From Cyanobacteria bacterium P01_A01_bin.123 (GTDB taxonomy: Bacteria > Cyanobacteriota > Cyanobacteriia > Phormidesmidales > Phormidesmidaceae), in contig JBCBZT010000003.1 of assembly GCA_039815185.1 (NCBI GenBank), forward strand, positions 186,010 through 250,009: a stretch of 64,000 nucleotides of DNA. The letters are read 5' to 3'. This document shows positions 15,461-50,620 of this stretch, in pieces (the first letter of the stretch is position 1; each line of letters opens with the position of its first letter). The position numbers and the translations under genes are program-made. The notes under the pieces are model-generated. The model had not been told where the DNA came from, did no database searches, and saw only the letters and a program-made list of their open reading frames with translations.

Positions 15461-18130
15461 TTAGTCAACAGCGGTGACGAAACGCACTAAACCGAGTTCG
15501 TCGACACCCACTGTCCCCACATCGACAAAGGCCGCCCCTAAAGTGCCAGCATTCCCACTAGGGCAAGCGCCATTGGCGGTTAGTGCCGCTAGAAATGCAC
15601 CTTCATCACCATCCGATGCATTGGTCTGGTTAACAGCTGCACCTAAAGCCGCCGCAGGGCTGGCATAAGCAACCCCTTGTCCAGCGGCAAACCCATCGGT
15701 CACAAACGAGGAATTGGCAGGCACCGGGTCACAAATGGAAACATCAGTAAACGCAGCGGCGGTACGATTAATGAAGTAGATTGTGTACTCGACCTGGTCT
15801 CCACTGGTGAGTTCATTCAGGGGTGCGGTAGGTGTTGTCACCCCCACAAAGGCATTATCCGGTGGGCTACCTGTAGGGGCAGCAAAGTTTGTTGTTACCC
15901 CACCGCGTACAATCCGCGTGATTCGCTTGATCAGCTCTAGACCAAAGGTGATGGGGGTAGGGGTGTCGTTGTTGGGGCTGGTTGGGTCTTCGTTGGCATT
16001 GTCAACCACATTGCCACCATCGTTAGAGTTATCGGTTAATGGAATGCCTGTATTGCCAATTTCACCTCCCCCCACTGCAATATTTTCATAGTTCAGTAAG
16101 TTGCCTGGGGTAACCCGAATGGTGAATTGAACTGTGATAAATGAACGAGTAACACTCCCGGTTGTTAAAATTGCTGGGCCTAGGGTTGCAGCACCCAGTA
16201 AATTAGTATCTCCGGTACCATCAAAGCCAGCATTCGCGACGGCGGTCGTTTGTGTCAATCCCGATGCAGCAGTAGGGCCACTTGTAGCCGTCACTGTTGG
16301 GGCAACTTGAACATTAAAGGCCGTTGCTCCAGCAAAGGTTGTGGCTACATTATCGGTCAGCGTCACATTGGTGAGGGCAATCGTGCTGAGATTTTCAATG
16401 GTGACTTCAAAGAGAACATCAAATTGAGTGGCCCCCACTGGTGTGATTGAAATAACTTGTTTGGCGACCCCCAGCCCAGCGGTAGTCGTTATAAGGCCGC
16501 TGAGCTCCGAGGTTGACAGCGTCGCTGGGTTTGTTGCGGTTGATGTGACAACATCCCCCAAAGTTAAGGCTCCTGGTCTCGTATTGGTGAAGGTAAAGCG
16601 ATTGGTTGTGTCTTCGCCTTGAGCAGATTGATAGGCGGGCGGAATCCCGGGGCCGTAGCTACCTGTACCTGCTGTGACATCGTTGCCGCCGCCTTCAGTT
16701 TCTGTTAGCAAGAAAGTTTCTGCTTCACCGAAGTTGTTGGGATCAGGTGTCGTAACGGTAAACAGCTCAATAATTGCGCCAGGGCGGGCAAAGCCCGTGA
16801 GAATGAGTTGGCTATTGTCATTTGTGATGATAGCTGCCTCATAGACGGGGAAATTAAAGCGTTCGTTAGGGTCACCGTCAGCATCACCATTGTCGTTTAG
16901 GGTGATGCCGTCGCCGGTATTGCCACCATTCAAATCGATAGCCAACCTACCCGCTGCATTGACCGTGGCCCCTGTCGCTGCGTTACGGCCATTTTCAAAA
17001 ATGCTGTTTTGGGTAATGCGATTACCAGTGCCCTGGCTCACAACGATGCCGTCGTTGACGTTTGCCGTAATCGTGTTGTTAGAAATCAAATTATTATTGC
17101 CGTTGCGGATACCAATACCCGCGTCTTGATCCGCTCCTGGCCCCAAGCCATTGGCTCGAATTGTGTTACCAGAAATCGTATTGTTATCGTTGGCAAAAGT
17201 ACGGAGGTCAATGCCGTAAGCCGCATTGCACTCAATCAGGTTATTGGTAATCGTGATATTGTTAGCCGCTACTAACTCAATGCCATCTGCTAGTTGATCG
17301 GCAGCGCCCCCCCTATTGGTGCCGTTTGCACCACACATAAAGCTTGCCATTGTATTAGTCGGCACACCACCCGCGTTGACGCGAACTATATTGTTGTCAA
17401 TCGTGACGCCAGACGCCCCAAAACGGACACTAATACCGCCGTTATCATTGTTTTGAACGATACTGTTGCGAACGACAGAGCCTGCAACGCTTTGGTTGCC
17501 GAAATTAGCCTGAGCAGGTGTAGGACTGTTGTCAGTGGTGCCATTGAAGAAAATCCCAGAACCGTTTCTATCAGCGCCGATACTGTCTTGAACAATTAAG
17601 GTATCGAGGGTTGTATTTGGTGCTTCTACCCGGATAATGGCACCACTGCCAACCCCGCCGCCTTGCCCCACGCTTTCAATCGTCAAATTTTGAATGGTGG
17701 AACCAGCCGCTGTTGCTGCGATCAGAAAACCAGGGCCACCATTGCCTTGATAGTCGATGATGGTGGTCGTCTGGCTGCCACCGACAATCGTCATCGGCGT
17801 GCTGATGGTGGGGAGTGGGGTTCCCCCCACGTTAATCGTGGTTGCGGCAGGGATATTGATTGTATCTAGGCCAGCATCACCGGCGATACATTCATTGACT
17901 GCTGTATCGGTGTTGGCTGCTTGCATTGCTTCTCGTAGCGTACATTGACCATCAGCAGCAACGGTATCTCCAGCCCCTGTCACAGTAATCGTTGCTGCTA
18001 GAGAAGGCGTGGCACAACCCAAAATGCTTACTAGCGCAGTGCTGAAAAGCAACCCAGTTTTTATGGCTAGGGGTGACCAACAGGATTGAAACGTTGAGGT
18101 CATATCATTGAGTGATCGCAGAGGTTTCAC
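15461..18130 (-). CDS. Secreted CSLREA / right-handed beta-helix surface protein with DUF11 domains (paralog 2)
   Basis: Signal peptide (..TPSLA|AT), DGQCTLREAMQAAN (CSLREA-type), Asn/Gly beta-helix repeats, AIDL..DG.TLND..D.D..PN..FNFP motif, two DUF11-like domains; GTG start inferred by alignment with the paralog. Confidence 0.85.
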   Translation of the reverse strand: MKPLRSLNDMTSTFQSCWSPLAIKTGLLFSTALVSILGCATPSLAATITVTGAGDTVAADGQCTLREAMQAANTDTAVNECIAGDAGLDTINIPAATTINVGGTPLPTISTPMTIVGGSQTTTIIDYQGNGGPGFLIAATAAGSTIQNLTIESVGQGGGVGSGAIIRVEAPNTTLDTLIVQDSIGADRNGSGIFFNGTTDNSPTPAQANFGNQSVAGSVVRNSIVQNNDNGGISVRFGASGVTIDNNIVRVNAGGVPTNTMASFMCGANGTNRGGAADQLADGIELVAANNITITNNLIECNAAYGIDLRTFANDNNTISGNTIRANGLGPGADQDAGIGIRNGNNNLISNNTITANVNDGIVVSQGTGNRITQNSIFENGRNAATGATVNAAGRLAIDLNGGNTGDGITLNDNGDADGDPNERFNFPVYEAAIITNDNSQLILTGFARPGAIIELFTVTTPDPNNFGEAETFLLTETEGGGNDVTAGTGSYGPGIPPAYQSAQGEDTTNRFTFTNTRPGALTLGDVVTSTATNPATLSTSELSGLITTTAGLGVAKQVISITPVGATQFDVLFEVTIENLSTIALTNVTLTDNVATTFAGATAFNVQVAPTVTATSGPTAASGLTQTTAVANAGFDGTGDTNLLGAATLGPAILTTGSVTRSFITVQFTIRVTPGNLLNYENIAVGGGEIGNTGIPLTDNSNDGGNVVDNANEDPTSPNNDTPTPITFGLELIKRITRIVRGGVTTNFAAPTGSPPDNAFVGVTTPTAPLNELTSGDQVEYTIYFINRTAAAFTDVSICDPVPANSSFVTDGFAAGQGVAYASPAAALGAAVNQTNASDGDEGAFLAALTANGACPSGNAGTLGAAFVDVGTVGVDELGLVRFVTAVD

Positions 18131-18275
18131 ATCACACCGAAACAAGGTACAGGTTACTCCAGTTAGAAAACGGTTACTTAACTGCAAGCATGATACCAAG
18201 GTTACGGACTGCTCCAGAGATGATTCTCCTACGGCGATCGCAGGCCAAATCTATTGCAGACCGAACATGATCAGC

Positions 18276-20936
18276 TTAATCAACCGTGGTAACAAACCGC
18301 ACAAAACCCCGTTCATCGACGTCTACCGTACCGACATCGACGAATGCAGCCCCTAAAGCCCCGGCATTGCTGTTAGGACAAGCCCCATTAGCCACTAGGG
18401 CCGCCAGAAACTCACCAGCATCAGCATCAGCGGCATTGCTTTGATTGATGCCTGCCCCCAAAGCTGCCGCCGGAACCGCATAGGAAATGCCCTCACCTTC
18501 GGCAAACCCATTCGGCGCAAAGGAGCTATTCTCAGGCACTGGATCACAAATGGAAACATCAGTAATAGCAGCGCCTGTGCGGTTGATGAAATAGATTGTG
18601 TACTCTACCTGATTACCACTGACGAGCGAGTCTAAGGGGGCAGGCGGCGTTTCTACCCCAACAAAACTATCGTCAGGGGGATTGCCCGTCACCGTGGTGA
18701 AGTTTGTCTCTATGCCATCTTGAACCACCCGTGTAATCCGTTTGATCAACTCTAGTCCAAAGGTAATGGGGGTAGGGGTGTTGTTATTAGGACTGGTTGG
18801 ATCTTCATTCGGATTATCAACGACAGTGCCGCCATCATTAGATTCATCTCTCAACGGAACGTCGGTATCGCCGATATTACCTGTCCCTACGGCAATATTT
18901 TCGTAATTCAGTAAAGTTCCTGGCGTGACTCGAACGACATATTCAACTTCGATAAACGAGGGCGTATCCGATCTTAAAATCCGGGGCCCCAGAGTTGCCC
19001 CAGCTGCGAGCAGATTGACATCACCACCGGGGTTTACGCCGTCAAAGTTTGTATTTTCTGCCGCGGCTGTACCATCTCCGTTTGTGTCTGTGATATCAAT
19101 GGCTGAGGCTGGTGGTGTGGTTAACACTTGGAAGCTGTCCGCACCAGCGAAGGTTGTGGATAGGTCATCCGTGATTTGAACATTGGTTAGGGTAACTGAG
19201 CTCAAGTTCTCAACTCTGAGCCTAAACCTTACATCAAACACACCTGCCGACACTGGGGTCACAGACACAACTTGTTTTGCGACGCCAATCCCAGCGGTGG
19301 TAGTAATCAGACCGCTGAGCTCAGAGGTTGAGAGTGTGACAGGGTTAGTGGCCGTTGACGTCACCACATCACCGATGGCCAAGGCGCCTGGTCTGGTGTT
19401 GGTAGAGGTAAAGCGATTCGTCGTATCTTGTCCTTGAGCGGTTTGGTATCCAGGCGGAATGTCTGGACCATAACTCCCTGTCCCCGGTGTGACATCGTTT
19501 GCACCGCCTTCAGTTTCTGTCAACAAGAAGGTTTGCGCTTCCCCAAAATTGTTGGGGTCAGGGTTAGCAACCGTAAATAGCTCAATAATGGCGCCTGGGC
19601 GGGTAAAGCCAGTAAGAATGAGTTGGCTATTGTCATCGGTGATAATGGCCGCTTCAAAAACCGGGAAGTTGAAGCGTTCGTTGGGGCCACCATCGGCATC
19701 ACCATTGTCATTCAACGTGACGCCATCCCCAGTATCGCCAACGCCTAAATCGATGGCTAACCTATCAGCTGCATTGACAATGCCCCCTGTGGTTGGGTTA
19801 CGACCATTCTCAAAAATGCTGTTTTGGGTAATGCGATTCCCGATACCTTGGCTGACTACGATACCGTCGTTGACGTTTGCAGTAATGGTGTTGGTCGAGA
19901 TCGTATTATCATTACCGTTTCGCACACCAATACCCGCGTCTTGGTCCGTTGACACCCCGAGACCATTGGCTCGAATTGTGTTGTTGGAAATCGTATTATT
20001 ATCGTTGGCAAAAGTCCGAAGATCGATGCCGTAGCTGGCGTTACACTCAATTGTGTTGTTTGTAACTGTGATGTTGTTGGCCCCGACTAGCTCAATACCA
20101 TCCGCCCGTGGATCGGCGCTGCCCCCCCGATTGGTCCCGTTTACGGCACATCCAAAGGTCCCTATTGTGTTGGTCGGTACGGTGCCTCCGTTGACGCGAA
20201 CCAGGTTGTTGTCAATGGTGACCCCAGACGCACCGAAGCGGACAGTAATCCCCCCGTTGTCGTTGTTTTGAACAATGCTGTTGCGAATGACAGACCCTGA
20301 AACATCTCTGCTTCCAAATGTTGCTGCAGGGGGCGTGGGATCGGTGCTAGTCGTGCCATTGAAAAAGACTCCGGAGCCATTTCTATCGGGGCCAAAGCTG
20401 TCCTGAACAATTAAGGTGTCCAGAGTTGTGTTTGGTGCTTCTACCCGAATAATGGCACCCGAACCGGCAACAGCGTCTGGGCCAACGCTTTGAATCGTTA
20501 GATTTTGAACGGTGGAGTTTGCTGCTGTGATTAGTAAGCCAGGCCCCCCATTGCCGTTGTAGTCGATGATGGTGGTGTCGCGACTGCCCCCATTAATGGT
20601 CATCTGCGTACTGATGGTGGGTAGGGGTGTGCCGCCTACATTAATCGTGGTTGCGGCGGGGATATTGATGGTGTCAAATCCGTCACCAGCCGTACACTCA
20701 TTCACGGCTGCATCAGTATTGGCTGCCTGAATGGCTTCTCGCAGCGTGCAAATACCATCAGCGGCAACGGTGTCTCCAGCCCCTGTCACATTAATGGTTG
20801 CCGCGAAGGCAGGTGCAGCGTGTCCCAAAACGCCCAATAGCGCAGTGCCAAAAACTAAACCAGTTCGGTTAGCTAAGGGTAACGAGCAGGATTGAACCGT
20901 TGAGACGATATCGTTGAGCGATTTCAGGGATTTCAT
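18276..20936 (-). CDS. Secreted CSLREA / right-handed beta-helix surface protein with DUF11 domains (paralog 1)
   Basis: Signal peptide (..APAFA|AT), DGICTLREAIQAAN; collinear and highly similar to 15461-18130 over its whole length. Confidence 0.85.
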   Translation of the reverse strand: MKSLKSLNDIVSTVQSCSLPLANRTGLVFGTALLGVLGHAAPAFAATINVTGAGDTVAADGICTLREAIQAANTDAAVNECTAGDGFDTINIPAATTINVGGTPLPTISTQMTINGGSRDTTIIDYNGNGGPGLLITAANSTVQNLTIQSVGPDAVAGSGAIIRVEAPNTTLDTLIVQDSFGPDRNGSGVFFNGTTSTDPTPPAATFGSRDVSGSVIRNSIVQNNDNGGITVRFGASGVTIDNNLVRVNGGTVPTNTIGTFGCAVNGTNRGGSADPRADGIELVGANNITVTNNTIECNASYGIDLRTFANDNNTISNNTIRANGLGVSTDQDAGIGVRNGNDNTISTNTITANVNDGIVVSQGIGNRITQNSIFENGRNPTTGGIVNAADRLAIDLGVGDTGDGVTLNDNGDADGGPNERFNFPVFEAAIITDDNSQLILTGFTRPGAIIELFTVANPDPNNFGEAQTFLLTETEGGANDVTPGTGSYGPDIPPGYQTAQGQDTTNRFTSTNTRPGALAIGDVVTSTATNPVTLSTSELSGLITTTAGIGVAKQVVSVTPVSAGVFDVRFRLRVENLSSVTLTNVQITDDLSTTFAGADSFQVLTTPPASAIDITDTNGDGTAAAENTNFDGVNPGGDVNLLAAGATLGPRILRSDTPSFIEVEYVVRVTPGTLLNYENIAVGTGNIGDTDVPLRDESNDGGTVVDNPNEDPTSPNNNTPTPITFGLELIKRITRVVQDGIETNFTTVTGNPPDDSFVGVETPPAPLDSLVSGNQVEYTIYFINRTGAAITDVSICDPVPENSSFAPNGFAEGEGISYAVPAAALGAGINQSNAADADAGEFLAALVANGACPNSNAGALGAAFVDVGTVDVDERGFVRFVTTVD

Positions 20937-20960
20937 AGCACGCTGAGACACAAGACAGAG

Positions 20961-23033
20961 TTATTCCAGTTGCAGATCGGTTTCTTGACGTTCAAAGATA
21001 ATGTCGAGGCCACGGGTGTCTTCAAAGATGACTTCCACGCGGCGATCGCGGGCGTAATCGAGCCGAGTGCTGCCAGTGGTTGCCCGTTGGCTTTCGCCGA
21101 AGGGCCGAATCCGCATTCGTTCAGGTTCAATGCCCTGCTGCAGTAGATAGTTACGGGCAGACAGAGCCCGGCGCTCACTCAAGGCTTGGTTGTACGCATC
21201 GCTGGCACGGGGATCGGTGTGGCCTTGCAGTTCGATCACAATAAAGGGATATTCCAACAGAACCGCTGCAATCTGATCGAGCACATTGGCACTCTCTGGG
21301 CTGATGTTGGAGCGATCGAGGGCGAAGTGAATATTGCGCGGCACTTGCAGTTGCAATGGCTCCGGGGGGGGCGCTTCCGAGGGCGGTTCCGGGGGGGGAT
21401 CAGCTGCAAAGCAGCTGGGAGGCGAGATTGGTTCGAGCGCCAAGTCAGGAATCGGTTCGCCCATAACCCGAACGGTTGTCACCGGGGCGGGTTCGGAGGT
21501 GCCATATTGGGGATCAGTGGCGATCGCACTGAGGCGAGTCCCTGCCGGTACGGACAATGTGGTCGCAAACTGGCCAGCATCATCGGCAGTAACCGTCGCG
21601 AGGAATTTTGCCAGGGGACTGTAAACCCTCTGATCTTCCACCACCTGGTAGATGTCTACCTCTGATCCTGGATCCGCAGTGCCTTGTAAGGTAACTTCAC
21701 CCTGTTCTAAGGGAAATTCATAGGCCATAAATTGGGGGGCATTGATTGCCCCATTGCCCGTGTCCGTGCGGCGGTTGTGAGAATTGCGCGGTGGATTGGG
21801 ACCATCGGCCTCTTGATAAGCCCTGACCTCGCTAGCGTCAGCCGCATTCAAGTCAATGCTGAGTCCATCGAGCTGCAAAAACTGATTGTTGCGGATAATG
21901 TTGCGATCGCTGCGGGGAAAAGCCGTTACCGTCACCCCAGGTCCAGGCTGATAGCCGATCAGATTATTCAAAACCTGATGGTCATTGCCCATGAGGTAAA
22001 CGGCTGCCCGTTCGAATCGTCGCCCGTTGAACTTGATCGAATTGTCTTGAATCAGAACTGCGCCTTCGGGTTTGAACAGATAAATGCCGCTACCGTCGTT
22101 GCCACACAGCAGGTTATTCTCCAGAACCGCATCGGTCACGATTCCTTCTAACCGAATTGCATCGGGCATCCCGGCTATGCCATTGCCAATAATGGTATTG
22201 CCAGTCACCATTAACTCCTCAGCCCGCACCCCCGTGATAATGGCGCTACCATCGTGGTGCCGAATCTGGTTTTGACGGATGGTAACCCCAGTGGCATTAA
22301 AGACGGATACTCCAAAGGTTGAAGTCTCCTCGGGAAAGCGATTTTCTGGCGGTAATCCCAGCCAATTTTGTTCAATCACCACATCTTTCGTTGCGGCCTC
22401 AGACGTGCCGAAATCAAAAAAGCTGAGCGGGGGCGACAATGGGCTAGCGTCCGCTGGGTGTGGAGCATTACTAATGAAGATGTCGCTGGGGGGAGTGGTT
22501 TGTGTCGATCGCGGCGCTGCTCGAAACCCATAGATACTCAATCCGCGCACGGTTACCCCATCACCAATGATGGTCAGCCCACGAAAGACTTCCTGTCCAG
22601 CTGCTGGGGTCAACGCCACTACAGGTACGGGTACGGGCACTTGGGCCTGGGGTGGTTCAGCATTGCCGTATCCCGGCTGAGTTGTGCCGTCAATTAGGGT
22701 ATTGGGCGTTTCAATTGCGGGCAGTAAGGTTTCAACTGCAATCGTGGTTTGAGCTAAGGGTAGATTGAACTGGATCTGCGGTGCTCCAGTCGGGGAAGGG
22801 GCAATCAGGGCTTGCTCCGCTGGGCTCAGCGCCGCCGGCGTTAGAGTCCCATTAGCCAGCTCAATCGCTTCTCGTAGGGTGAGGATCCCATCGGCAGTTA
22901 CTGGGCCATCTAGATCACTGTTGACCGTCACGATATACGGTTCAAAAGTTTGCTCGTTAGGGGTTTGGGCGATCGCTGGGAGAGCGAGTAAATAAATAAA
23001 AGGTGCTGACAGTATCGATATCTGACGAATCAT
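20961..23033 (-). CDS. Beta-helix protein with C-terminal OmpA-like peptidoglycan-binding domain
   Basis: Signal peptide, LTLREAIELANG, beta-helix repeats, Pro-rich linker, IHFALDRS..GHTD..YNQALSERRA..DRRVE OmpA signature. Confidence 0.9.
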   Translation of the reverse strand: MIRQISILSAPFIYLLALPAIAQTPNEQTFEPYIVTVNSDLDGPVTADGILTLREAIELANGTLTPAALSPAEQALIAPSPTGAPQIQFNLPLAQTTIAVETLLPAIETPNTLIDGTTQPGYGNAEPPQAQVPVPVPVVALTPAAGQEVFRGLTIIGDGVTVRGLSIYGFRAAPRSTQTTPPSDIFISNAPHPADASPLSPPLSFFDFGTSEAATKDVVIEQNWLGLPPENRFPEETSTFGVSVFNATGVTIRQNQIRHHDGSAIITGVRAEELMVTGNTIIGNGIAGMPDAIRLEGIVTDAVLENNLLCGNDGSGIYLFKPEGAVLIQDNSIKFNGRRFERAAVYLMGNDHQVLNNLIGYQPGPGVTVTAFPRSDRNIIRNNQFLQLDGLSIDLNAADASEVRAYQEADGPNPPRNSHNRRTDTGNGAINAPQFMAYEFPLEQGEVTLQGTADPGSEVDIYQVVEDQRVYSPLAKFLATVTADDAGQFATTLSVPAGTRLSAIATDPQYGTSEPAPVTTVRVMGEPIPDLALEPISPPSCFAADPPPEPPSEAPPPEPLQLQVPRNIHFALDRSNISPESANVLDQIAAVLLEYPFIVIELQGHTDPRASDAYNQALSERRALSARNYLLQQGIEPERMRIRPFGESQRATTGSTRLDYARDRRVEVIFEDTRGLDIIFERQETDLQLE

Positions 23034-26000
23034 TAGACCTCACCCCCTGTTTCGATGTCGTTTGGTGCCGCGTTAGCAGGTTGATCGGGTTCAACATAGG
23101 AGTCTTGCTGCTGCTGCGGTGACACCATCTGCAATCCAAATCCATTCAATAGTTCATTTACCTTGAAGGTGACGCCCAAATAAACCCCGCTACCCGAGCG
23201 ATACGCGTTGTCACCTACAAAGCTGCCTTCATTTGCGCCGCCAAAGCTGTAACCTACCCCTAATCGCAGATCAGGCGTCAAGTAATATCCCGCTTCTAGG
23301 GCAAATCCAGTTTCGCTATAGCCAACGGTGGGTTGACCAATCCAGCGGGCTCCTGCTGTGACATCCCAACGGTAGGCAAAGCGATAGGTTGCCCGCATTT
23401 GGGCAAAATGAATGGAATTGGAAAATCCAAAGTCGTCAGCTAGATTGACATTGCTGTAACGCAAGGCATACTTGCCATAAAGTTCCCACTGCCAGCTGGG
23501 GGATAAGATGCCCTCTAATGCCAACGTATGATCTACGGCGTCGTTGCTGGAGCCAATCAGAATGCTATCGGGTGTGGTGCTGGGATTATTGCGATACTCG
23601 TAGCTCAATAATCCGTTGAAAATATCGCTGCTTGGATCGCGGTAGGCCAGCCCCAACCTGAGATTAATCGAATTACCAAGGTTGCCCGTGATGGTCTGGT
23701 TTGCAAAGTTAGCCTGCTCGTAGCGAAACAGGGTCGTCAACGACCGGGTAATGCGGCCCCCAGCGGCAGCCGTAAACACGGTGTTGTCGCCACTATCAGA
23801 ATCTCGATGTTCAAATCGTGCACTGGCCTGAAAATCTGGGTTGTCTGTATACTCCAAGCCAATACTATAAGCGGTGCTGGACTGGAGTCCCAACGCAGAA
23901 GCGTTTTGACCCACAGCAAAGGGTTGGGCAAACTGCTCTCCCCCCCCGGTTAGGTTGAACGCGTCGCCAAAGATGCGTTCTAGGCCAAAGTTCGCTCGCA
24001 ACCCAGGTGCTAACACCATGCGGTGATTCAACCCAATGGCTCCCTGCCCCGTGATGCCGTTAAATCCTCCCAACAGGGAATACCGATTTGTCAACGTTGT
24101 GTTGTCGTCTAAGGCGTAATCGATCAGGCTATCCAGGCGAGTGACTGAGCCTGGGTTAGCCCCGCCGGTAAACTGTTGTGCCAGCCGCAGGGTCATACCG
24201 GGTTGTACGGCCCATTCTAGGCCTACGGTTTGGCGATCGGGATAAAGTGAATCGCCGGTGCCCAGGTTTAACTCACTCTGGGCCAAAAAACTCAAATCTC
24301 CTGTGATTGGCAGATTCAGCCGAGAGACTACTTGATTAGAGTCAGTATTGAGATTGGTGATGCGATCATCGCGACCGCGAAAGATCCAATCAACGCCTAG
24401 GGTAGTGGCACCGAACCGTTGCTGAATGCCAATCTGGCCTGTGGTTAAGGTGTTATCGACTGAACTCCCCTGAATGGCCTGTTGCCCGGGCGATAGCAAG
24501 GCTCCGGCAGAGGTCAATACTGCTGGGGATGAGCCAACGTTTGTTTCTTGGTCGATTAAACCTCGAAGCAGGGTGCTGGGGCCAATGCGAGCCGCGATCT
24601 CGGCTCCCCAGCGCGTTTGTCCGGGACGAAAGCTAGAGGTGTAGTCGTTTTGAAACTCAGGTGCGGCAGATTGCAGATAGGCGCGACCAAATACATTAGG
24701 CAGAACGTTGCCATTAAAGGCCAATCGAAAGGCATTTCCTGAAGTCGTGGCCCCCCCGCTAAACGAATCTGATCGGGCCCATTCCCCAACGAACGTCCCA
24801 ATGCTGCCAATCGGCAACTGGAGATCAACGCCGTATAGATTGGAGTCAAAATCTCCCTGGTCTGCGTGGAGAAACGTAGCCCCAACCCAGCTATTGAGAT
24901 CGGGGGTGAAGGCATACTGCAATCGCCCTGCATACAATTCACCGCCAAATTCACCGCCGTCTAGTTGGTAGGTGACAACAATCCGACGCACCAGCGTCTC
25001 GCCGAAGGGATCGATCTCTGTGGCATAAATCGGTTGACGAAATAGCAGCGTGCCTCGGTCATAATCAATGTCATAGTCAGCTCCCCGATAAAGCTCTGTA
25101 CGCTCAACTACCGTCCCGGGGCGATTAATCTCCTCAGTCTCGATAAAAACATTTTCACTCCCGCGCAGCACTGCCCGCCGAGATAAGAAATAAAAGCCAC
25201 TGGTGCCGTCGGGTGCAATCGTATCGCGCTGCAACTGCTGTAAGTTGTTGCCGTACATGGCCGTGACTTGCAACCCATTGGCAAAACTATAGTTGCCCTT
25301 AAAGCCGTGGAGTTGCAGTGTAGTCGCGGTAAAGGTTTGAGAAGACCGAGCAAATTCTGGAGTGCTGTAATCGCCCCACATCAGGTAGTCAGGTTCAGCC
25401 CCTGGCAAGATAGAGTCTCTCTGGAGGCGCAAATAAAGACTGTCGGCAGACGGGGTCAAAAATTCTGAGGTCGAGCTGTCGCCATAAACCGGATAGGTTT
25501 GGTCACAAGCTTGGAGATCATTGAGGATACCGTTATCCCCTCCACAACGCTCGTTTAAGTTTCGCTCGCTCGTGTATGCTCCGGTAATTTGCCAATCTCC
25601 CAGGGTGCCAATGCCAAACAGGGAAATATCAGGGTCAAACTCCGTTCCGTTGTCAAGTAGATCCGGATTGAGAAAGTCTCCAAAGCTCCCCCAAAAATCA
25701 GTTCCGGCTTGCCCCAACCGCAAATGCACCACACCCGAAACTAGAGATGGCCTCAAATCCGTGACAAATTGAACCTCGGTGTAGGCTGCGACCTCTGGAT
25801 AAGGGTCGGGATCGATCGCTGGATCAAGTCCGCGCACTTGATGGCCATTAACGGCTGCCCGAATCTGAACGGTCTGAGCGTCTAGATCAGAACGCAGCAG
25901 CGTCTCAAACTCCCCACGACGGGCCAGAATTTGAAATCCTGCGAGATCGTTGTCATAGTCTGTCTGGACAAATACTCCAGCACTACTGGTTAGCGTGACA

Positions 26001-26782
26001 ATGATATCTCGATCAAGTACGACGCCATCGACATCGAGCACTTGTCCGCTCAGTCTGACCACGGCTCGTCCATTGGCTGGAATAATGCCGTTACCAATGG
26101 GCTCAATTTGGAGTGTTGGCCCTTGATTTTCCTCCAGCAAGTCCTCTTCTGACAGACGCTCTAAGGGATCTTCGGGAGCATCGGGGCGTAAGGCAGGGGG
26201 CGGCACAAATTCGTCCATGGGGGTACCCCCATCTCCATCAAACTGAGCCATCAGTTCAGCTTGATGGGGGGATATTGGAGCGGCTTGAAAATCAAGGGTT
26301 GACGCTTCTAGGACGCCGGAAAAAGCTAGGTTATTTCCCTCAAGCGCCAATGTTTCAGAGTCAGTTGAGTGCGATCGCGCCGGGGAAACATGAGCATCTG
26401 AGTTGCTGACTGGGTCATTAACTGGATCGTTAACGAGGGTATTTGCCTCAATTAAGTCTCCAGTCTGTAAGACAGCGGCGTCAGTGGCCAAGCCGTCAGC
26501 TGTTTCCCTTATTCTGGGGAGATTAAGTGCAGGTGAAACATGGGTCGTCGATCCAACATTCTCATCGGCTGACGGGCTCGCCTCAGGGGAAACTGATTGG
26601 GGTTGCAGGTCCTGATTGACCATTGGCTGCTGATCATCGCTTGGCAGCGGCGCAGCGTCATCAACCGCCACGGACAGGTTCGATGCAGCCGCTTCCCCAT
26701 ATGCAGGAAATGCTGCACTTAAAACTCCAGCGATAACGGCCAGTGCCTTAATTGCCAGTAAAGTTTGCTGTGAGCTTGCCAT
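23033..26782 (-). CDS. Large outer-membrane beta-barrel protein (putative usher/translocon; often auto-labelled TonB-dependent receptor)
   Basis: Signal peptide after M at 26782, acidic disordered N-terminus, Ig-like IPANG domain, YPVYGDSS and DYDIDYDRGTLLF motifs, long run of amphipathic beta strands ending GVYLGVTFK. Confidence 0.8.
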   Translation of the reverse strand: MASSQQTLLAIKALAVIAGVLSAAFPAYGEAAASNLSVAVDDAAPLPSDDQQPMVNQDLQPQSVSPEASPSADENVGSTTHVSPALNLPRIRETADGLATDAAVLQTGDLIEANTLVNDPVNDPVSNSDAHVSPARSHSTDSETLALEGNNLAFSGVLEASTLDFQAAPISPHQAELMAQFDGDGGTPMDEFVPPPALRPDAPEDPLERLSEEDLLEENQGPTLQIEPIGNGIIPANGRAVVRLSGQVLDVDGVVLDRDIIVTLTSSAGVFVQTDYDNDLAGFQILARRGEFETLLRSDLDAQTVQIRAAVNGHQVRGLDPAIDPDPYPEVAAYTEVQFVTDLRPSLVSGVVHLRLGQAGTDFWGSFGDFLNPDLLDNGTEFDPDISLFGIGTLGDWQITGAYTSERNLNERCGGDNGILNDLQACDQTYPVYGDSSTSEFLTPSADSLYLRLQRDSILPGAEPDYLMWGDYSTPEFARSSQTFTATTLQLHGFKGNYSFANGLQVTAMYGNNLQQLQRDTIAPDGTSGFYFLSRRAVLRGSENVFIETEEINRPGTVVERTELYRGADYDIDYDRGTLLFRQPIYATEIDPFGETLVRRIVVTYQLDGGEFGGELYAGRLQYAFTPDLNSWVGATFLHADQGDFDSNLYGVDLQLPIGSIGTFVGEWARSDSFSGGATTSGNAFRLAFNGNVLPNVFGRAYLQSAAPEFQNDYTSSFRPGQTRWGAEIAARIGPSTLLRGLIDQETNVGSSPAVLTSAGALLSPGQQAIQGSSVDNTLTTGQIGIQQRFGATTLGVDWIFRGRDDRITNLNTDSNQVVSRLNLPITGDLSFLAQSELNLGTGDSLYPDRQTVGLEWAVQPGMTLRLAQQFTGGANPGSVTRLDSLIDYALDDNTTLTNRYSLLGGFNGITGQGAIGLNHRMVLAPGLRANFGLERIFGDAFNLTGGGEQFAQPFAVGQNASALGLQSSTAYSIGLEYTDNPDFQASARFEHRDSDSGDNTVFTAAAGGRITRSLTTLFRYEQANFANQTITGNLGNSINLRLGLAYRDPSSDIFNGLLSYEYRNNPSTTPDSILIGSSNDAVDHTLALEGILSPSWQWELYGKYALRYSNVNLADDFGFSNSIHFAQMRATYRFAYRWDVTAGARWIGQPTVGYSETGFALEAGYYLTPDLRLGVGYSFGGANEGSFVGDNAYRSGSGVYLGVTFKVNELLNGFGLQMVSPQQQQDSYVEPDQPANAAPNDIETGGEV

Positions 26783-26837
26783 AGTGCGTCTGTTTCTTAA
26801 CTTCCCTGATTGTTTGGTCGATACTTCCCTGCGAACA

Positions 26838-27869
26838 CTATTGACCTGGCCCAACAACCTGGCCCTCACCAAAGGTAGGGGTCACTCCAAAGTTCATACG
26901 TACCAATCCACCTGGCTCAAGCTGAACCAGGCGCGACTGGCTGTTTTGGTCAAGACGATACAAGTTAGGCGCTAGGGTATAACCCGGCAAGCTGGTTAAA
27001 TCCAACGTGCCGACTCGATACCCGCGATAGACATTTGCTACGGAAAATAAGCCCTCGGGGTCGGTAATGATGCGATTGCCATCATCCATAAAGACAACAG
27101 CATTGGGGACTCCTTCTTCTCCAGGTTGCTGTTCACCATCGAAATTTTTATCAACAAAGACCCGTCCGACAACCGTGCCACAATCGGCAACGATCCCCGG
27201 ACGAATCAGCAGTTGAAACTGAGAAGTAACGGTTGCAAATCCCGGAGCGGAGGCCTGGGCAGTGTTCTCCCCTGACCCCCGAACTGAATCAGGAGTGAGC
27301 AATACAGCATAGACAATATTGATCGATTCACCCGCGGCCAAGGTTGGAAACTCAAGGGTAATCTGACTGTTATCGAAGCTTACTGAAGTCGGTGCGGTAG
27401 GCGTTGCCTGGACTGAATCAGGCACATACAGCAGACCTAGGGGTAACTGATCAACAATGGTCAGCGGTGTAGCCGCAGTAGTCGTGCTGTTGTTGGTTAC
27501 CAGCAGTCTGTACAGCACCACATCCCCAGGCTCTGCAGCAGCTCGATCTGCGGTCTTAACAATCGATAATCCTTGCTCCTGGGCAGCTGTCCCCGATACC
27601 TGATAAGAGGTGGTGTTTGAGGTGCCAGTTTGCACATTACCACCAGAGGTGAATTGAGCCGATGCTTGGTTAGTCACCGTTACCTGTGCCTGGGAGGCAG
27701 TCGGCAAAATCAGCCCACCATGAAGTGCAAGGCTGGTAAACAAAGCCAACAAAAAAATCATCCAGCGTCTAAGAAGACGCCTACCTGTAGCGAATATCGG
27801 TTTCAACACCCACAACTCCCACACACTCGGTAGATAACGTAATATCACCGAAAAATCAGATAAAGTCAA
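26838..27869 (-). CDS. Exported DUF11 + SdrD-B-like domain protein, first gene of the operon
   Basis: Signal peptide (..TASQA|Q), LSIVKTADRAAAEPGDVVLYRLLVTN DUF11 motif, GRVFVDKNFDGEQQPGEEGVPNA SdrD-B-like motif; true start probably near 27809. Confidence 0.85.
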   Translation of the reverse strand: MTLSDFSVILRYLPSVWELWVLKPIFATGRRLLRRWMIFLLALFTSLALHGGLILPTASQAQVTVTNQASAQFTSGGNVQTGTSNTTSYQVSGTAAQEQGLSIVKTADRAAAEPGDVVLYRLLVTNNSTTTAATPLTIVDQLPLGLLYVPDSVQATPTAPTSVSFDNSQITLEFPTLAAGESINIVYAVLLTPDSVRGSGENTAQASAPGFATVTSQFQLLIRPGIVADCGTVVGRVFVDKNFDGEQQPGEEGVPNAVVFMDDGNRIITDPEGLFSVANVYRGYRVGTLDLTSLPGYTLAPNLYRLDQNSQSRLVQLEPGGLVRMNFGVTPTFGEGQVVGPGQ

Positions 27870-42459: not shown

Positions 42460-45297
42460 TTAACGCCCATCTCTGCGCGAAAAAGGGCTGCTAGCCGGGC
42501 CATCGGTGTTGATGCGGTTGATGGGAGTGTTGCTGGCGATGGGTACTAACACCCGGCTGAGTAGTCGGTCATCATCTAGTTTGAACAGATTAAATTCTCC
42601 GCCCATTTGCTGCATCAGCGTCTGACAAATGGTGAAATGTAGCCCTGGCGGATCATCTAAAGTTGAGGGGGCTAATACATCTTCAGGACGTCCTTCATGC
42701 AGCTCTTCGATCAGCTGGATGTCTAAAGTGCCGCTATCAGTAATCGAAATTTCTACCCAGGTGCGATCGAGAGGACGACACCAGATATCGATGCGTCCGC
42801 CTGTGGGGGTACGATGACAGGCAGCCACCAGCAATTCATAGAGGACGAATTCAATTTTTTGAATATCGCCGCCGATGTTGAGATTGGCTTCGTTATGGAC
42901 TTTAGTCCAAAGCTGCTGCCGTTGAATCAGGCTATTGGCACGCTCCATTAATCGGTTTAGCAAGCTGACAATTGGCGTTGTTTCATACTCGGCATGGAGT
43001 CGCCATTCTTCGTGTTCGAGCAGGGGTGACAGGTTGGTCAACAAGTTGCTGAGTTGGCGTACCACCTGCTGATAGCGCTGACTTGAGAGGACATCTTTAC
43101 GAAAACTCAGCTCGTTAAGCCGTCGGATGTTGTTGTCTAAGATGCGGTGGAGTTCTGTAAACCGCTTTTGCTTATACCAGTTTAGGGTTTCAAGGGATTC
43201 TCGCTGGGTCAGCAGCATCTCCACTAGATTGAGGTGTCGTCTTGACCAAGCCAGTTGGTTAGCCATCAGAGTGAGTAAATTGAACTGATAGTCTGTCCAG
43301 CGGCGATCGCCCCGATCGATCGTGACTAACAATCCGTTGGGATAATGCTCTGGGGCCGTGCGTAAGATGATTGCCATGACCTTGCTATCGTTGGGGGCAA
43401 TCAGCCATTGACGGGCAGCATCGGGTAAATCATGCAGTTCAATGGACAGTAAGCCGTCTGTTTGCAGAGCCCAGTTGATCACCGCATCAGTGCTAAGCGG
43501 AATGGGGAAATTGGCTTTGAAGTCAAAATCGCGATCGCGCACCAGCGATACCGATATCTTGGCATGTTGATCGTCGGCTTTCCAGGTCACTAACCCAACT
43601 GCAGGTAGCCGCAGCAACTTTGCCAGATGTTCTAGGGTAATCTGCTCTAGCTGGTCGAGTTGGAAGGTGGATTGCAGGTTGTGTAGGCCCCACTGCATGG
43701 TTTCGTAGAGCTGGGCTTGCTGATTAGTTTGGCGCTGCAACTGCCACTGGTGCAAAATTAACCCCACCTGTTGGCTGACCACACGCAACAGAGAGCTTTC
43801 GAGCTGACTCCAACGACGACTGCGCTTATCGGCCAGCACCAATACCCCTTCGGGAGCATGGCCAATGGAAACGTTGCATACCAACAGCGATCGTACGCCC
43901 ATCTCTGACAAGACAGGGTGCCAGTTCATCAATTTCAAATCATCTTGGATATCTTCGATGGCGATGGGTTCCTGGCTGCGCTCTAACATTTGCCAATCCA
44001 CGTCGCTTAACGACAGCCAAGTCTGGCGAGTTTTGCGGGCGTTGGTGGGGCGGCTTTGATAGCACAGTTCAAATCCCCCTTCTTCCAAGTTGTAGAGCAA
44101 GACAAACAGTTGATCGGCATCTAGCTGTTGGCACAGTTCCTGAGAGCATAGATCTAGCGTCTTGCGCCAGTCTTCATCGCCGTGGATACTGCGGGAAATG
44201 GCCGCAGTCAGCATTTGATCAGCTTTGACTGTTTGGACAATGGCTTCCGTTTCAGAGGTCGGCATTGATAACCCAATCATCTGGGCAGCCCCTTGTAAAT
44301 AGGCTTTTTCGGGTTCTGCCCAGATGCGAGCCTCACTGCCTTGGACAGACAAAAAACCTAATAGTTCGCCCTGGTGAAAGATCGGGGCTGCCATGAGCGA
44401 TCGTGCCCGCACCACATCCATCAGTCGTCCGGTAAGGCTAGCTGCCAGAGAACTTTGGGCCTCGCCAATGACCACCAGTTGCCCCCCGCTTAAGGACTGG
44501 TAAAACCCTTTGACATCGCTTGCGACAATGGGTTCCGATGGATTGACAGTAGATTGCTTACTCTCTCGACTGCCATAGCGATTGCCCAAACGATGCCAAA
44601 AATATCGATCTTGGGGATTAAACCAGTAGATGTTGGTTCGATCGGGGGCAACAAATCTTTGCGTTTCTTCGACCACGGCCAGTAAGCGTGCGTCTAGGGT
44701 GGTCAAATTTCCCAGCTGTCCCAACAGCTTGAACAGCGGTTGTTCGGGGCGTTTGGCTGTTTGACGCTGGTGTTCCTGTTCTCGATCTTGCAGCGCCTCG
44801 GCCAAAGCCCCTAAAACCAGAGATAGGGTCGCTCGTTCTGCAGAACTGGGAGAAACTCCCCAGCGATCAGACCCTAAAACCATTACCCCAAAGCAGAGGT
44901 CACGCCGTCGAATGGGGAAAATTAGCGTTCCTTGAATATCCAAGGTTTCTGCCAGCTTGCTCCACTCTCCGGCACGGCTTTCGGCTCGTAAATCTGGTAC
45001 GGCCAAAGGGCGCTGCTGAATCACCACCTGTTCCATCAAATCCCCAGGCAAAAGGGGGATGGTCTGCCGTAGGCGGCGCAAATCTTGCTCGCAGCGATAC
45101 CCTTTGCCTTGCAGGCGATGATTAATCCGATCGTAAAATCCGATCCAAAGCAGGGGATACGAATACTCGTCGTTAACAAAGTCAAGGGTCTCCGCAACCA
45201 ATTCGTCCAACGCCTCTGTTTCCCGCAGCGTTTGGAGAATTCGCCCGATTGCCACCATCCTTTTTTCATGGGGGGTTGGTGTCTTCGGCTGACCCAT
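42460..45297 (-). CDS. Multi-GAF sensor with degenerate histidine-kinase/HATPase C-terminus
   Basis: Four GAF-like units each ending ..R.W...E...L...A..(L/I)G-like; HATPase-like tail (GDIQKIEFVL, ISITDSG, QQMGG); AGGAG RBS before ATG 45297. Confidence 0.85.
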   Translation of the reverse strand: MGQPKTPTPHEKRMVAIGRILQTLRETEALDELVAETLDFVNDEYSYPLLWIGFYDRINHRLQGKGYRCEQDLRRLRQTIPLLPGDLMEQVVIQQRPLAVPDLRAESRAGEWSKLAETLDIQGTLIFPIRRRDLCFGVMVLGSDRWGVSPSSAERATLSLVLGALAEALQDREQEHQRQTAKRPEQPLFKLLGQLGNLTTLDARLLAVVEETQRFVAPDRTNIYWFNPQDRYFWHRLGNRYGSRESKQSTVNPSEPIVASDVKGFYQSLSGGQLVVIGEAQSSLAASLTGRLMDVVRARSLMAAPIFHQGELLGFLSVQGSEARIWAEPEKAYLQGAAQMIGLSMPTSETEAIVQTVKADQMLTAAISRSIHGDEDWRKTLDLCSQELCQQLDADQLFVLLYNLEEGGFELCYQSRPTNARKTRQTWLSLSDVDWQMLERSQEPIAIEDIQDDLKLMNWHPVLSEMGVRSLLVCNVSIGHAPEGVLVLADKRSRRWSQLESSLLRVVSQQVGLILHQWQLQRQTNQQAQLYETMQWGLHNLQSTFQLDQLEQITLEHLAKLLRLPAVGLVTWKADDQHAKISVSLVRDRDFDFKANFPIPLSTDAVINWALQTDGLLSIELHDLPDAARQWLIAPNDSKVMAIILRTAPEHYPNGLLVTIDRGDRRWTDYQFNLLTLMANQLAWSRRHLNLVEMLLTQRESLETLNWYKQKRFTELHRILDNNIRRLNELSFRKDVLSSQRYQQVVRQLSNLLTNLSPLLEHEEWRLHAEYETTPIVSLLNRLMERANSLIQRQQLWTKVHNEANLNIGGDIQKIEFVLYELLVAACHRTPTGGRIDIWCRPLDRTWVEISITDSGTLDIQLIEELHEGRPEDVLAPSTLDDPPGLHFTICQTLMQQMGGEFNLFKLDDDRLLSRVLVPIASNTPINRINTDGPASSPFSRRDGR

Positions 45298-45418
45298 ACC
45301 ACGCAGACTCCTTACCTGCAAAGCAAATAACCTATGACGCCCATATAACACCTTGGCCAGTGACCAGATTATTCATCTCCTATGAGCGGCGTCTTGAGAT
45401 ATTTAAAGAATCGAAAAG

Positions 45419-45493
45419 TAAACTTCGTCCACACCCAAATTTATGATTTTTCCTTAAGCTAAGCACTCAAGTTTTCAAATTGGATGGGGTTTA
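45419..45493 (-). repeat. MITE-like repeat copy (reverse)
   Basis: ACTCAAGTTTTCAAATTGGATGGGGTTTA on the + strand. Confidence 0.75.
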
Positions 45494-45688
45494 TCACTGA
45501 CTCATGTTTTGCCTACTGTAATGCACCTGCTCCCCGTGGTAACTTTTTTTAGGCTGATTTGCCTATGTATTCCTTAACGTTTCATTCTGGGCGACAGCTC
45601 AGCAATGCCTCGAAAGCTAGGTTGCATCAAGGTGATTAGACAATATGGCGTAAGAACTTATCCACATTTTGCCCAAATTGACCATAAT

Positions 45689-45764
45689 TAAACCTTATCC
45701 AAATCCGGATCTACCAGTTTCCCTTAAAATCAAAAACTCAAGTTTGCCAATTGGATGGGGGTTA
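45689..45764 (-). repeat. MITE-like repeat copy (reverse)
   Basis: ACTCAAGTTTGCCAATTGGATGGGGGTTA on the + strand. Confidence 0.7.
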
Positions 45765-45795
45765 ACCCAGGGTCAGTAACCCCAATTAAGCTCCC

Positions 45796-47001
45796 ATGGA
45801 GGTGAGTGCAGTGGTGTTGGATCTCTATAAAACCTGCCTTCGACCCTTGATGTTCTCGACCCTCAAGGCTGATCCGGAATGGCTGCATCAGCAAACTATC
45901 AAAAGTTTGGCTTGGTTTGCTCAGCCATTGTTACATCCTCCTGTGCCAACTGCCGCAGGCATAACCGCCCCTTACCAGCGCTGGCTGGGCCAAACCTGGA
46001 CTTATCAGGATCCGAGGCTTAACCAACAGCTATGGTCTCTAGCCTTTCCAAACCCAGTAGGCATCGCTGCAGGATTTGATAAAGACGGCATCGCAGCTCG
46101 GGCTTGGCCTTTGATGGGGTTTGGCTTAGCCGAATTGGGTACGGTGACCTGGCATGGGCAACCGGGTAATTCTCGACCCCGCCTGTTTCGATTGCCTGAT
46201 GATCAGGCTGCACTCAATCGTATGGGGTTTAACAATAATGGAGCAGCTGCTTTGGCAAGTCAGTTACAGGTTTTGGGGCTCGATCACGATCGCCCGATTC
46301 CCCTCGGCATCAACCTCGGTAAATCAAAGGTGACGCCGCTGGATCAGGCTGCAGGGGATTATCTGGCTAGCTTTCGCTGCCTTAAGTCCTGGGGTGATTA
46401 TTTTGTGGTGAATGTATCGTCCCCCAACACACCTGGACTGCGATCGCTGCAAGCCAAAGACCAGTTAGATAAAATTCTCTCGACGCTACAACAAGATAAC
46501 CAGGGGGAAAAGCCGCTACTGGTGAAAATTGCCCCTGATTTAACCTGGGAGGCGATCGCAGAAATTATCGATTTAGCCCAAATCCATCGCCTCGCGGGCA
46601 TCATCGCTACCAATACCACTGTCCGCCGAGACCATCTCAAAACCCAGCATCTACCGGCCACGGGTCAGGCAATTACCGCAGAAGCGGGGGGCATTAGCGG
46701 TGCTCCCCTGCGCCAACGGGCGACCGAGGTGATTCGGTTTATTTGGCAGCAAACCCAGGGTCAATTGCCAATTGTTGGTGTCGGCGGCATTTTTACCGCT
46801 GGGGATGCCTGGGAGAAAATCACTGCCGGAGCCTGCTTGCTCCAAGTGTATACCGGTTGGGTCTATGAAGGTCCGTGGATGGTGCGTCGAATATTGCAGG
46901 GGCTCTGTGATCAGCTTGAGGCCCATCATTTAAACCACATTTCAGAAGCGGTTGGTTTAGCTCATCGGGATCTCTCTGATCAGCAAAAAGTAGTGCGATA
47001 G
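45796..47001 (+). CDS. pyrD: Dihydroorotate dehydrogenase (quinone)
   Basis: [59 protein letters not shown]. Confidence 0.96.
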
Positions 47002-47059
47002 GAGCATTGCACTGTTACGCTGCTATCGAATACGCATACGCCTCCATCAAAACCCGCTG

Positions 47060-47500
47060 CTAGGGTAGACCATAGCTCGCGACCCGAATCAGCAGTTCTC
47101 CTGCTTGAGGGTTGTGGGTAAACACAAAGCTACCCCGTTTTTGCTCGTTACCCGATAGAAAATCGATTTGCTGTTCCCCTGTTTCGCTGGGTTCGTTTTC
47201 GATAGCCAGTTCTGCCGTGACTTGGACGGTGCGGGCAATACGACCGCCCGTATTTTTGATGATGAAGGGCACATAGTAGTGGCCATCTGTGACTCTTGCC
47301 GACTCGGTCACTGCGATCGCAAAGGCGGGGGGACGCGTCTGGTTGATCTGCCAGTCGTAAATAATTAACCCAATTAAGCCCAGCAAAATCGTCGTTGCTG
47401 CGAGCAGGGTAATCCATTCTGCCAGCGATCGCTGCCCATCTTCTAGCTCAGTTGGAATTGCCTGGGTTTGGACTTCAACGGGGGAATCAGAATCGTTCAT
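47060..47500 (-). CDS. TIGR02588-family protein
   Basis: SLAEWITL TM anchor, YVPF..KNTGG..A..VQV.AEL, GEQQIDFL, GSFVF; adjacent to a TIGR02587 gene. Confidence 0.85.
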   Translation of the reverse strand: MNDSDSPVEVQTQAIPTELEDGQRSLAEWITLLAATTILLGLIGLIIYDWQINQTRPPAFAIAVTESARVTDGHYYVPFIIKNTGGRIARTVQVTAELAIENEPSETGEQQIDFLSGNEQKRGSFVFTHNPQAGELLIRVASYGLP

Positions 47501-47502
47501 AT

Positions 47503-47592
47503 TTAATCTCGTCCACATTCAAAGTCATCGCCTTTTTGGGTCGGTTGCCAGCCTTATGCCCCGACAAACGTTTTCAAATCGGATGGGGGTTA
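47503..47592 (-). repeat. MITE-like repeat copy (reverse) filling the TIGR02587-TIGR02588 gap
   Basis: GTTTTCAAATCGGATGGGGGTTA on the + strand; its end coincides with the TAA stop at 47590-47592. Confidence 0.65.
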
Positions 47593-48447: not shown

Positions 48448-48455
48448 ATTTGAGC

Positions 48456-49892: not shown

Positions 49893-50366
49893 TTGACTCT
49901 CCTGAAGCAAAGCTAGTTCTCGACATGACCGTGGGCATCCTAACAAGAGTTAGGGCAGGCTATCCTCCATTGTCACCAGTGCATGCGCATAAGACAACAT
50001 CCCGCGAAGCGGAGCTAGTGATTGATCTAAGACCGTTGGCTCTAGGCAGTCATCCGCTAACCCAGTTCCGGCAAAGTCCCCAAGCCCTTATAAGCCCCAT
50101 GTTAAGCCTTCAGGGTAACGTTTAGTTACAGTTCACGTTGGATACAGGTATTGTATAGGTTGAGTAGATCTAGCCAAATCAAGGCCTTTAAATCCCAAGC
50201 TGGCTCTAGCCCCTTCAGCACGAAACTGGTATTAGCCCCTGCCCCAGATTCAAATCACCTAGATCAAGTTACTCAGATTGAAGTGATTGAGGTTTACCTT
50301 ATCCAGTCCTAGGGTGGTTGTTATCGCCGCTAACCGCCCTCTGTTGTTTCAGGCACTAGAACTCTA

Positions 50367-50567: not shown

Positions 50568-50620
50568 ATCTAAAAAGTAGATTTTTCAAACTGTTGGCGT
50601 CAAGCAGGGCAACCCAAGCT

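Follow-up and report, generated by a model that had tools for sequence, protein, structure and literature searches.

Introduction

Adhesin domains have been split by engineering to give the tools known as Tag/Catcher pairs. In the present study, a stretch of 64,000 nucleotides from Cyanobacteria bacterium P01_A01_bin.123 (contig JBCBZT010000003.1, positions 186,010 to 250,009, hereafter the window) was analysed, in which the same split seems to have arisen by evolution and to serve in attaching interchangeable adhesins to the outer membrane. Two paralogous passenger proteins of the window end in an incomplete DUF11 domain (the catcher), and an adaptor protein of the same operon carries an orphan Asn-bearing hairpin (the tag). 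The best reading of the locus, held as probable, is an enzyme-free and presumably covalent attachment of the adhesins, by donation of this hairpin, to a root bound to an outer-membrane barrel.

The DUF11 domain (PF01345), renamed CLIPPER, is classed as CnaA-like, and the solved structure 9IFR has the triad Lys715, Asp748, and Asn806 with the bond formed (PMC12617251). The CnaA-like fold and the Lys-Asp-Asn triad would be common to CLIPPER and to the locus described here; the published bond is intramolecular and found in stalk repeats only, whereas here the domain is split over two genes (PMC12617251). The terms "donor strand", "truncated", "cyanobacteri", and "SpyTag" had no occurrence in the available text of that article. 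A natural autocatalytic intermolecular Asn-Lys bond, with the Asn on an N-terminal donor segment and the Lys and the acid on the acceptor, would be shared with BsaA of Clostridium perfringens (10.1101/2024.11.04.621531). Incomplete immunoglobulin (Ig) folds completed by the N-terminal extension of the next subunit, a tip adhesin, an outer-membrane barrel, and a chaperone-like component (here in long operons) would be shared with chaperone-usher pili (PMC13721041).

Results

Incomplete terminal domain of the passengers

The catchers were located on the minus strand at 15461..15940 (catcher 1, residues 754-912 of passenger 1) and 18276..18755 (catcher 2), and were 73% identical. Both translations read LELIKR..VEYTIYFIN..ICDPVP..VRFVT(A/T)VD and then stopped, which bears out the claim, made earlier from the letters of the window (the sequence-only reading), that both passengers end in a DUF11 domain that keeps Lys and Asp and is cut before the Asn strand. 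The conserved codons were those of Lys758 (15926-15928), Cys823 (15731-15733), Asp824 (15728-15730), and Cys879 (15563-15565) in catcher 1, and of Lys737 (18741-18743) and Asp803 (18543-18545) in catcher 2. The Asn strand and the final strand are missing from the chain, so it does not hold the intramolecular bond of CLIPPER domains. Both catchers passed the cut-off of 24 for the DUF11 repeat model TIGR01451 (30.7 and 24.1 bits) and missed the gathering score of 24.6 for Pfam DUF11 (PF01345; 21.9 and 14.8). A complete comparator within passenger 1 (LGVAKQ..TDNV..YENIA) was present as claimed, and an internal complete DUF11/DUF7507-like domain of this protein was placed at 15944..16480 (minus strand, boundaries approximate), with Lys580, Asp616, and Asn706 assigned by sequence motifs; Pfam DUF7507 gave only a weak match, below its cut-off, in passenger 2. 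The label of CnaB-type had to be dropped, DUF11 being CnaA-like (PMC12617251, and fold matches below), while the isopeptide chemistry is analogous. The conserved acid of the catcher and of DUF11 is an Asp that follows the Lys by about 33-66 residues, with the Asn on the penultimate strand, as opposed to the Glu catalyst and the reactive Asn or Asp on the last strand of CnaB.

An alignment of 21 proteins was made from the two window proteins and 19 of 20 database hits, with the window's own cluster excluded. The proteins ended at most one residue from a common point in 19 cases, and the remaining two carried 8 more residues with no Asn-x-Ala. Among fetched loci, the stop lay 0-2 residues past the profile end in 35/35, and in 85/85, non-redundant hits that reached the profile end, the stop codon being no selection criterion for either set. 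Six residues (Lys6, Cys71, Asp72, Cys127, Arg154, and Phe155, in catcher numbering) were invariant in all 106 aligned catchers; the locus-retrieval pattern behind part of this set included neither the Lys nor the catalytic Asp. The alignment of homologous C-termini, proposed with the sequence-only reading as a check, thus upheld both the stop point and the Lys/Asp pair. The shared stop point and the invariant residues show that the truncation is a family trait and not chance or decay. The heads in front of the catcher were diverse, with 36 passengers forming 12 head similarity groups, lengths of more than 2000 aa, and up to 3 passenger copies per operon. Long DUF11 repeat proteins dominated the results of a profile search of 1.84 billion representatives; its totals (13005, 5411, and 1554) are not catcher counts, and only rows with full-profile terminal matches were kept.

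The catcher alone was modelled with a predicted local distance difference test (pLDDT) of 91 and a predicted template modelling score (pTM) of 0.87. The model finishes on its last strand and lacks the last two strands of the solved CLIPPER domain, an outcome in favour of the sequence-only reading. Compared with 9IFR, the catcher model covered residues 22-109 only (86 aligned, Z 6.3, root-mean-square deviation 2.2), and the complete domain of the adaptor covered residues 18-140 (121 aligned, Z 15.2, deviation 2.6), 9IFR being its best structural match. The missing 31 residues of the catcher correspond in length to the 30-residue tag. On four solved CnaA domains (2X9Z, 4HSS, 7LGR, and 3TXA), the catcher alignment began five residues ahead of the published isopeptide Lys, the catcher Lys being residue 6, and stopped 9-12 residues short of the published Asn (positions from Table 1 of PMC12617251). 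Among the top fold matches were 9IFR, in the correct register, and numerous CnaA pilin domains. 9IFR was also the sole PDB sequence hit for the catcher profile (E 0.14); the PDB sequence search with the adaptor gave nothing meaningful. TTHA1873 (7WRK) was like the complete domain and unlike the split one.

Adaptor hairpin and model of the complex

The adaptor, or root (26838..27869, minus strand, 343 aa), comprised a signal peptide, the orphan Asn hairpin, a complete DUF11 domain (Lys105, Asp140, and Asn202), and an SdrD_B-like C-terminal domain; Pfam/NCBIfam scans returned DUF11 and a weak SdrD_B match. Signal peptides of the passengers and the adaptor were judged by eye, with no predictor. 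The tag (27597..27686, minus strand) is a two-strand hairpin at the N-terminus of the mature adaptor (residues 62-91), in which an Asn-x-Ala strand leads through a turn and a Ser-Asn motif to another strand, about 30 residues in all, before the adaptor's own complete domain begins. Its Asn67 is encoded at 27669-27671 and a second conserved Asn85 at 27615-27617. The AlphaFold model of the adaptor (pTM 0.53) also gave the tag as a two-strand hairpin (pLDDT about 81-90) behind a weak linker, and is silent on whether the hairpin is free.

The tag Asn was invariant in 50/50 tags, which were chosen by motif, so that this count is partly circular; Asn6 and the second Asn, Asn24, in tag numbering, were invariant in all 28 short adaptors. 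A loose tag pattern was found near the N-terminus in 106 of the 119 long adaptors, which had been retrieved via the C-terminal part and not used to define the pattern. The same pattern occurred in 10/48 passengers, 1/20 barrels, 0/8 OmpA proteins, and 113/547 background open reading frames (ORFs).

The complex of catcher and tag scored 0.63 (runs 0.68, 0.59, and 0.63), against 0.01 for the best of three controls; the mark used for this score was reached by 116/157 solved complexes vs 2/215 mismatched pairs. At least 97% of the contacts agreed between runs, and the pLDDT of the partner was at least 75. In the model, catcher strand 66-72 pairs with tag residues 8-13, and both Lys6 and Asp72 contact Ala8 of the tag, two residues past the Asn. 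Split-domain halves tend to pass, and therefore the score supports complementarity and not binding in vivo.

These results support the view that a DUF11/CLIPPER isopeptide domain is split between two genes, with the terminal domain as its catcher half. Pairing of hairpin and catcher is, from models and sequences, very likely. The proposal that the incomplete domain is completed in trans as an attachment or sorting module gained support in this way, with the Asn hairpin of the adaptor as the candidate partner that it had left unnamed; the attachment role is better supported than the sorting role.

Distribution and types of the operon

Among 401 genomes of the phylum, the catcher was found in 47 and the adaptor in 52, all 47 lying within the 52 (lists compared by eye). 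Of the five remaining adaptor genomes, a profile detected a catcher in two, another two, from other classes of the phylum, had DUF11 proteins that stop at a similar place, and one (G128) had no catcher match. In the latter genome (L169:8656-12561), the adaptor was fused to a shortened barrel and carried no recognisable tag, which from its sequence looks like a stripped-down form of the system.

Operon types were read from 20 fetched regions and a second locus of the same genome (contig C49). In short operons, that of the window included, an adaptor of about 310-360 aa and a barrel were accompanied by one to three passengers and, optionally, an OmpA protein. Long operons added a subunit of 570-970 aa, tagged at its N-terminus and ending in a truncated domain (DUF7925 was found inside the one scanned), and a catcher-only protein of about 185 aa (about 160-200 aa), for which the family scan gave a weak DUF11 match only. 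In 17 cyanobacterial cases, this small protein had Gln at the catalytic position in 15 and Asp without the Lys in the other 2, and never had both residues. The triad is thus retained only where a permanent link is expected, being broken in the small protein, which is a candidate chaperone or cap. The adaptor was fused to the barrel in some genomes. The catcher subtype tracked the operon type in the 21 loci examined, the pattern missing two major subunits; this was not counted as co-evolution, since shared descent explains it equally well.

In the genome of the window, the clear tag hits and the full-length catcher hits, three of each, all fell inside two operons, and the tag and catchers of the window had been in the training sets. 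The second operon (G000:C49, about 45200-61500) is of the long type, with a major subunit, a small catcher-only protein, an adaptor, a barrel, an OmpA protein, and a passenger of 1660 aa; cross-talk with the passengers of the window is possible.

Several variants were observed. A passenger-type catcher and an N-terminal tag stood in one protein in L050:1963-6996 and in P0161, and from their sequences such proteins could be inserted mid-fibre or polymerise with themselves. Adaptors of 818-1161 aa (P0177-P0180) carried several tandem DUF11 repeats between the tag and the C-terminal domain, which suggests that stalk length can be set within the root too. A stand-alone exported protein of 149 aa (L174:10202-10651, genome G290) consisted of the SdrD_B-like C-terminal domain of the adaptor only, with no barrel match nearby in that region. 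The OmpA gene was in two frames in G346 (L031:13315-15365) and one G268 adaptor (L066) had an in-frame TGA, through decay or sequencing error.

Outside cyanobacteria, plasmid searches identified 7 records with barrel homologs and 30 with adaptor homologs, 16 of the latter being from Deinococcus. The full grammar was recognised by eye in Deinococcus ficus, with a small catcher without Asp, a subunit with tag and catcher, a tagged adaptor, a barrel, and a catcher-only passenger. The tag DR_B0037, listed in a proteomics table (PMC5382914), was unmapped to the locus and was not used. An Acinetobacter haemolyticus plasmid had the same grammar; its tag, adaptor, and barrel were in one protein of 2008 aa, and the annotation broke the extending subunit into pieces. 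One protein of 3362 aa, adjoining the barrel in Sinorhizobium meliloti, combined a DUF6923 head and a DUF7507 stalk with the adaptor C-terminal part, and no further DUF11 gene was annotated in the flanks of this locus. Cyanobacterial DUF6923 proteins, by comparison, end in a catcher; the split junction therefore sits where other genomes have a peptide bond. All3289 of Anabaena PCC 7120, putatively the barrel, is described only as a protein of 1289 aa that may have an outer-membrane anchor (PMC9705863).

Other features of the window

The window is the end of contig C92 in a genome of 8.09 Mb whose relatives are cyanobacterial. Five co-oriented genes lie on the minus strand in the order adaptor, barrel protein, beta-helix/OmpA protein, passenger 2, and passenger 1. 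The large predicted outer-membrane barrel protein (23033..26872, minus strand, up to 1279 aa) is the candidate export and anchoring channel; it matched no Pfam and no NCBIfam family at E 0.1, and the barrel fold is predicted from its sequence and from the annotation of distant homologs. The next gene (20961..23033, minus strand, 690 aa) encodes a beta-helix, Big_6, and OmpA-family peptidoglycan-binding protein, which was missing from several related operons and whose N-terminal CSLREA-like/beta-helix part is distantly paralogous to the passenger heads (26% over 477 columns, E 7e-5).

Passenger 2 (18276..20951, minus strand, 891 aa) is a paralog of passenger 1 (15461..18199, minus strand, 912 aa from the first TTG, the true start probably lying later). 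Both gave matches to a CSLREA domain, a beta-helix, and DUF11-type repeats in Pfam/NCBIfam; passenger 1 ran from a signal peptide through CSLREA, beta-helix, an Ig-like part, and the complete DUF11-like domain to the catcher. Scans for promoters and terminators returned no more than expected by chance, and no RNA data set was listed as holding the passenger genes. A multi-GAF histidine-kinase-like protein of 963 aa at 42460-45351 was ordinary and unrelated to the operon.

The last ORF of the window (60989-64000) holds seven DUF11 domains and CHU_C and is a Bacteroidota-type gene of the type IX secretion system (T9SS), with a junction near 61029. Its GC content at third codon positions was 0.31, vs 0.47-0.57 in seven other genes; contigs from two runs diverged to other sequence near 61029, with no listed contig piece bridging the junction, and in each of two runs depth dropped across it (about 30 to 5, and 22 to 0). 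On these grounds, the ORF is a misassembled foreign fragment, and it was rejected as part of the operon's system. The sequence-only reading had used it as a second comparator: the motif ISVTKT..TDFL..ITANV..YTNIA is present and is a valid complete DUF11 domain, but one that does not belong to the system of this organism. The CHU_C/Por secretion tail was found in this foreign ORF only, and the catcher proteins do not have this mark of T9SS cargo.

Discussion

The following course of assembly is proposed. Judging from their N-terminal sequences, passengers and adaptor would be exported by Sec and fold in the periplasm, with the invariant Cys pair probably forming a disulfide beside the groove. 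The N-terminal hairpin of the adaptor would then insert in the catcher as its last two strands, as the models and comparative data suggest, and the catcher Lys and the tag Asn would form an isopeptide bond, with the catcher Asp as catalyst and no enzyme, as the invariant triad and the solved 9IFR lead us to infer. The C-terminal part of the adaptor would anchor the complex on the large outer-membrane barrel, probably also the exporter, to which gene coupling and fusions point. The product of the window's short operon would be a short stalk, with one root, either of two adhesin tips, and no extending subunit. In long operons, the subunit with tag and catcher would polymerise the fibre, and the catcher without the catalytic pair would be a reversible chaperone or cap.

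The conserved incomplete domain, the triad divided over two genes, the complementary lengths, the co-occurrence, and the fusions are the sequence-based support for this scheme. By analogy with solved relatives and from the conserved residues, a covalent bond between catcher and tag is probable, and Lys, Asp, and Asn would be adjacent in three dimensions. Surface display through the barrel is somewhat favoured. The adaptor is presumed to bind the barrel, the barrel to be the route of export, and the small protein to act as a chaperone.

Several points weigh against the scheme. The whole case is built on sequences and models. The fold matches of the catcher all had Z <8, and no Foldseek match of the catcher model reached E 0.001, so that the weight of the fold comparison is in its consistent register and not in the score. 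The confident model of the catcher alone means that it may be stable without a partner. The tag pattern is loose (21% background), and the tag profile reached at least 8 bits in just 34/120 long adaptors, the tags therefore being divergent. In the complex, the Lys6-Asn6 pair was outside the 25 best contacts listed, with Asn6 inside the listed interface range of 4-15; the pass may come in part from likeness to solved complete CLIPPER/CnaA domains, and the score is blind to which tag a catcher prefers. The counts of co-occurrence are not independent, because the genomes are related. Heads of the passenger type need not be surface-exposed, because the OmpA protein bears a distantly similar one. 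Lastly, the bond is absent from some DUF11 domains (PMC12617251).

The last point also favours a non-covalent pairing, in which the hairpin would fill out the fold in the manner of chaperone-usher pili, with Lys, Asp, and Asn kept for packing or hydrogen bonding. The complex model speaks to binding only, and BsaA oligomers are stable in sodium dodecyl sulfate without the bond (10.1101/2024.11.04.621531); nevertheless, the triad is invariant across the split and broken specifically in the small catcher-only protein (17/17), and the solved relative 9IFR forms the bond (PMC12617251). A purely non-covalent pairing was accordingly considered unlikely, if the strongest of the alternatives. Less likely still is a real pairing with periplasmic, inward assembly, giving an envelope strut from the barrel to peptidoglycan and no surface adhesin. 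The OmpA protein, which joins a related CSLREA-like/beta-helix head to a peptidoglycan-binding domain, would suit such a strut, whereas the variability, length, and copy number of the passenger heads are as adhesins would have them, and the OmpA gene is dispensed with in several operons.

The truncated domain could also be a C-terminal secretion signal that suffices by itself and is recognised by the barrel, in the manner of the C-terminal domain of T9SS, with another role for the hairpin. It is always C-terminal, on unrelated heads, with a fixed end point and a good model alone; this reading leaves unexplained the orphan hairpin, the complex score, the subunits with both halves, and the fused Sinorhizobium form, and was held to be very improbable, although secretion-signal and pairing roles are not exclusive. 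A degenerate last repeat, or an artefact of assembly or annotation, which the scores under the Pfam DUF11 cut-off and the misassembly elsewhere on the contig might suggest, was rejected as scarcely credible given the same stop point in 85/85 hits, the many genomes, and the invariant residues.

If covalent donor-hairpin attachment is true, Gram-negative bacteria would have a further class of surface assembly that is covalent and needs no enzyme; a large barrel family without a Pfam entry would gain a function, the conserved ends shared by many "DUF11 hypothetical" proteins would be explained, and natural ligation pairs, possibly orthogonal ones, would become available. The evidence is about evenly balanced on the widest form of the proposal, in which two-membrane bacteria (Cyanobacteriota, Deinococcota, and Pseudomonadota) would have a pathway of export and assembly that is so far undescribed. 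Each subunit end would carry half an isopeptide domain and be locked covalently without sortase or another enzyme, with interchangeable adhesin tips, an optional extender, a catalytically dead catcher as chaperone, and a root on a barrel of no known family; the pathway would also be a natural Tag/Catcher library. No published description of the system was found in the literature searched; most subscription papers and supplements lie outside it, so that one could be missed.

Comparison with known systems

Two filaments of the TasA superfamily share a part of the scheme. The archaeal thread Saci_0406 is a donor-strand filament with a proposed intermolecular isopeptide, which differs in running from Asn to the N-terminal amine two subunits along (PMC9715654), and AbpX is a donor-strand filament that is non-covalent and calcium-driven (10.64898/2026.01.04.697558). 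Chaperone-usher pili differ in a non-covalent single strand, a 24-stranded usher, and a two-domain chaperone (PMC13721041). Completion of the Ig fold by a partner is here seen in the model only, with two strands vs one, and no usher (PapC/FimD), PapD chaperone, or pilin family was found on the five operon proteins with Pfam/NCBIfam, by sequence comparison only.

DogTag/DogCatcher, derived from RrgA domain 4, has in common an Asn-bearing beta-hairpin tag and a catcher with a reactive Lys and a catalytic acid; it is man-made, Glu-catalysed, and from another parent domain, whereas the pair here would be natural and Asp-catalysed (PMC8878318). BsaA is a TasA-family homopolymer with a Glu catalyst, dependent on SipW, and Gram-positive, with no occurrence of DUF11 in the available text (10.1101/2024.11.04.621531); no Pfam/NCBIfam match to the TasA family or the SipW signal peptidase was found on the operon proteins. 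Here, by contrast with BsaA, the fold would be that of CLIPPER, the donor a two-strand hairpin, the partners are dissimilar, and an outer-membrane barrel would take part. By analogy, the system may be likened to the donor-strand complementation of chaperone-usher pili combined with the isopeptide lock of BsaA, mirroring the split of DogTag/DogCatcher; it would be new as a system, and its principle of donor plus isopeptide is already known from BsaA.

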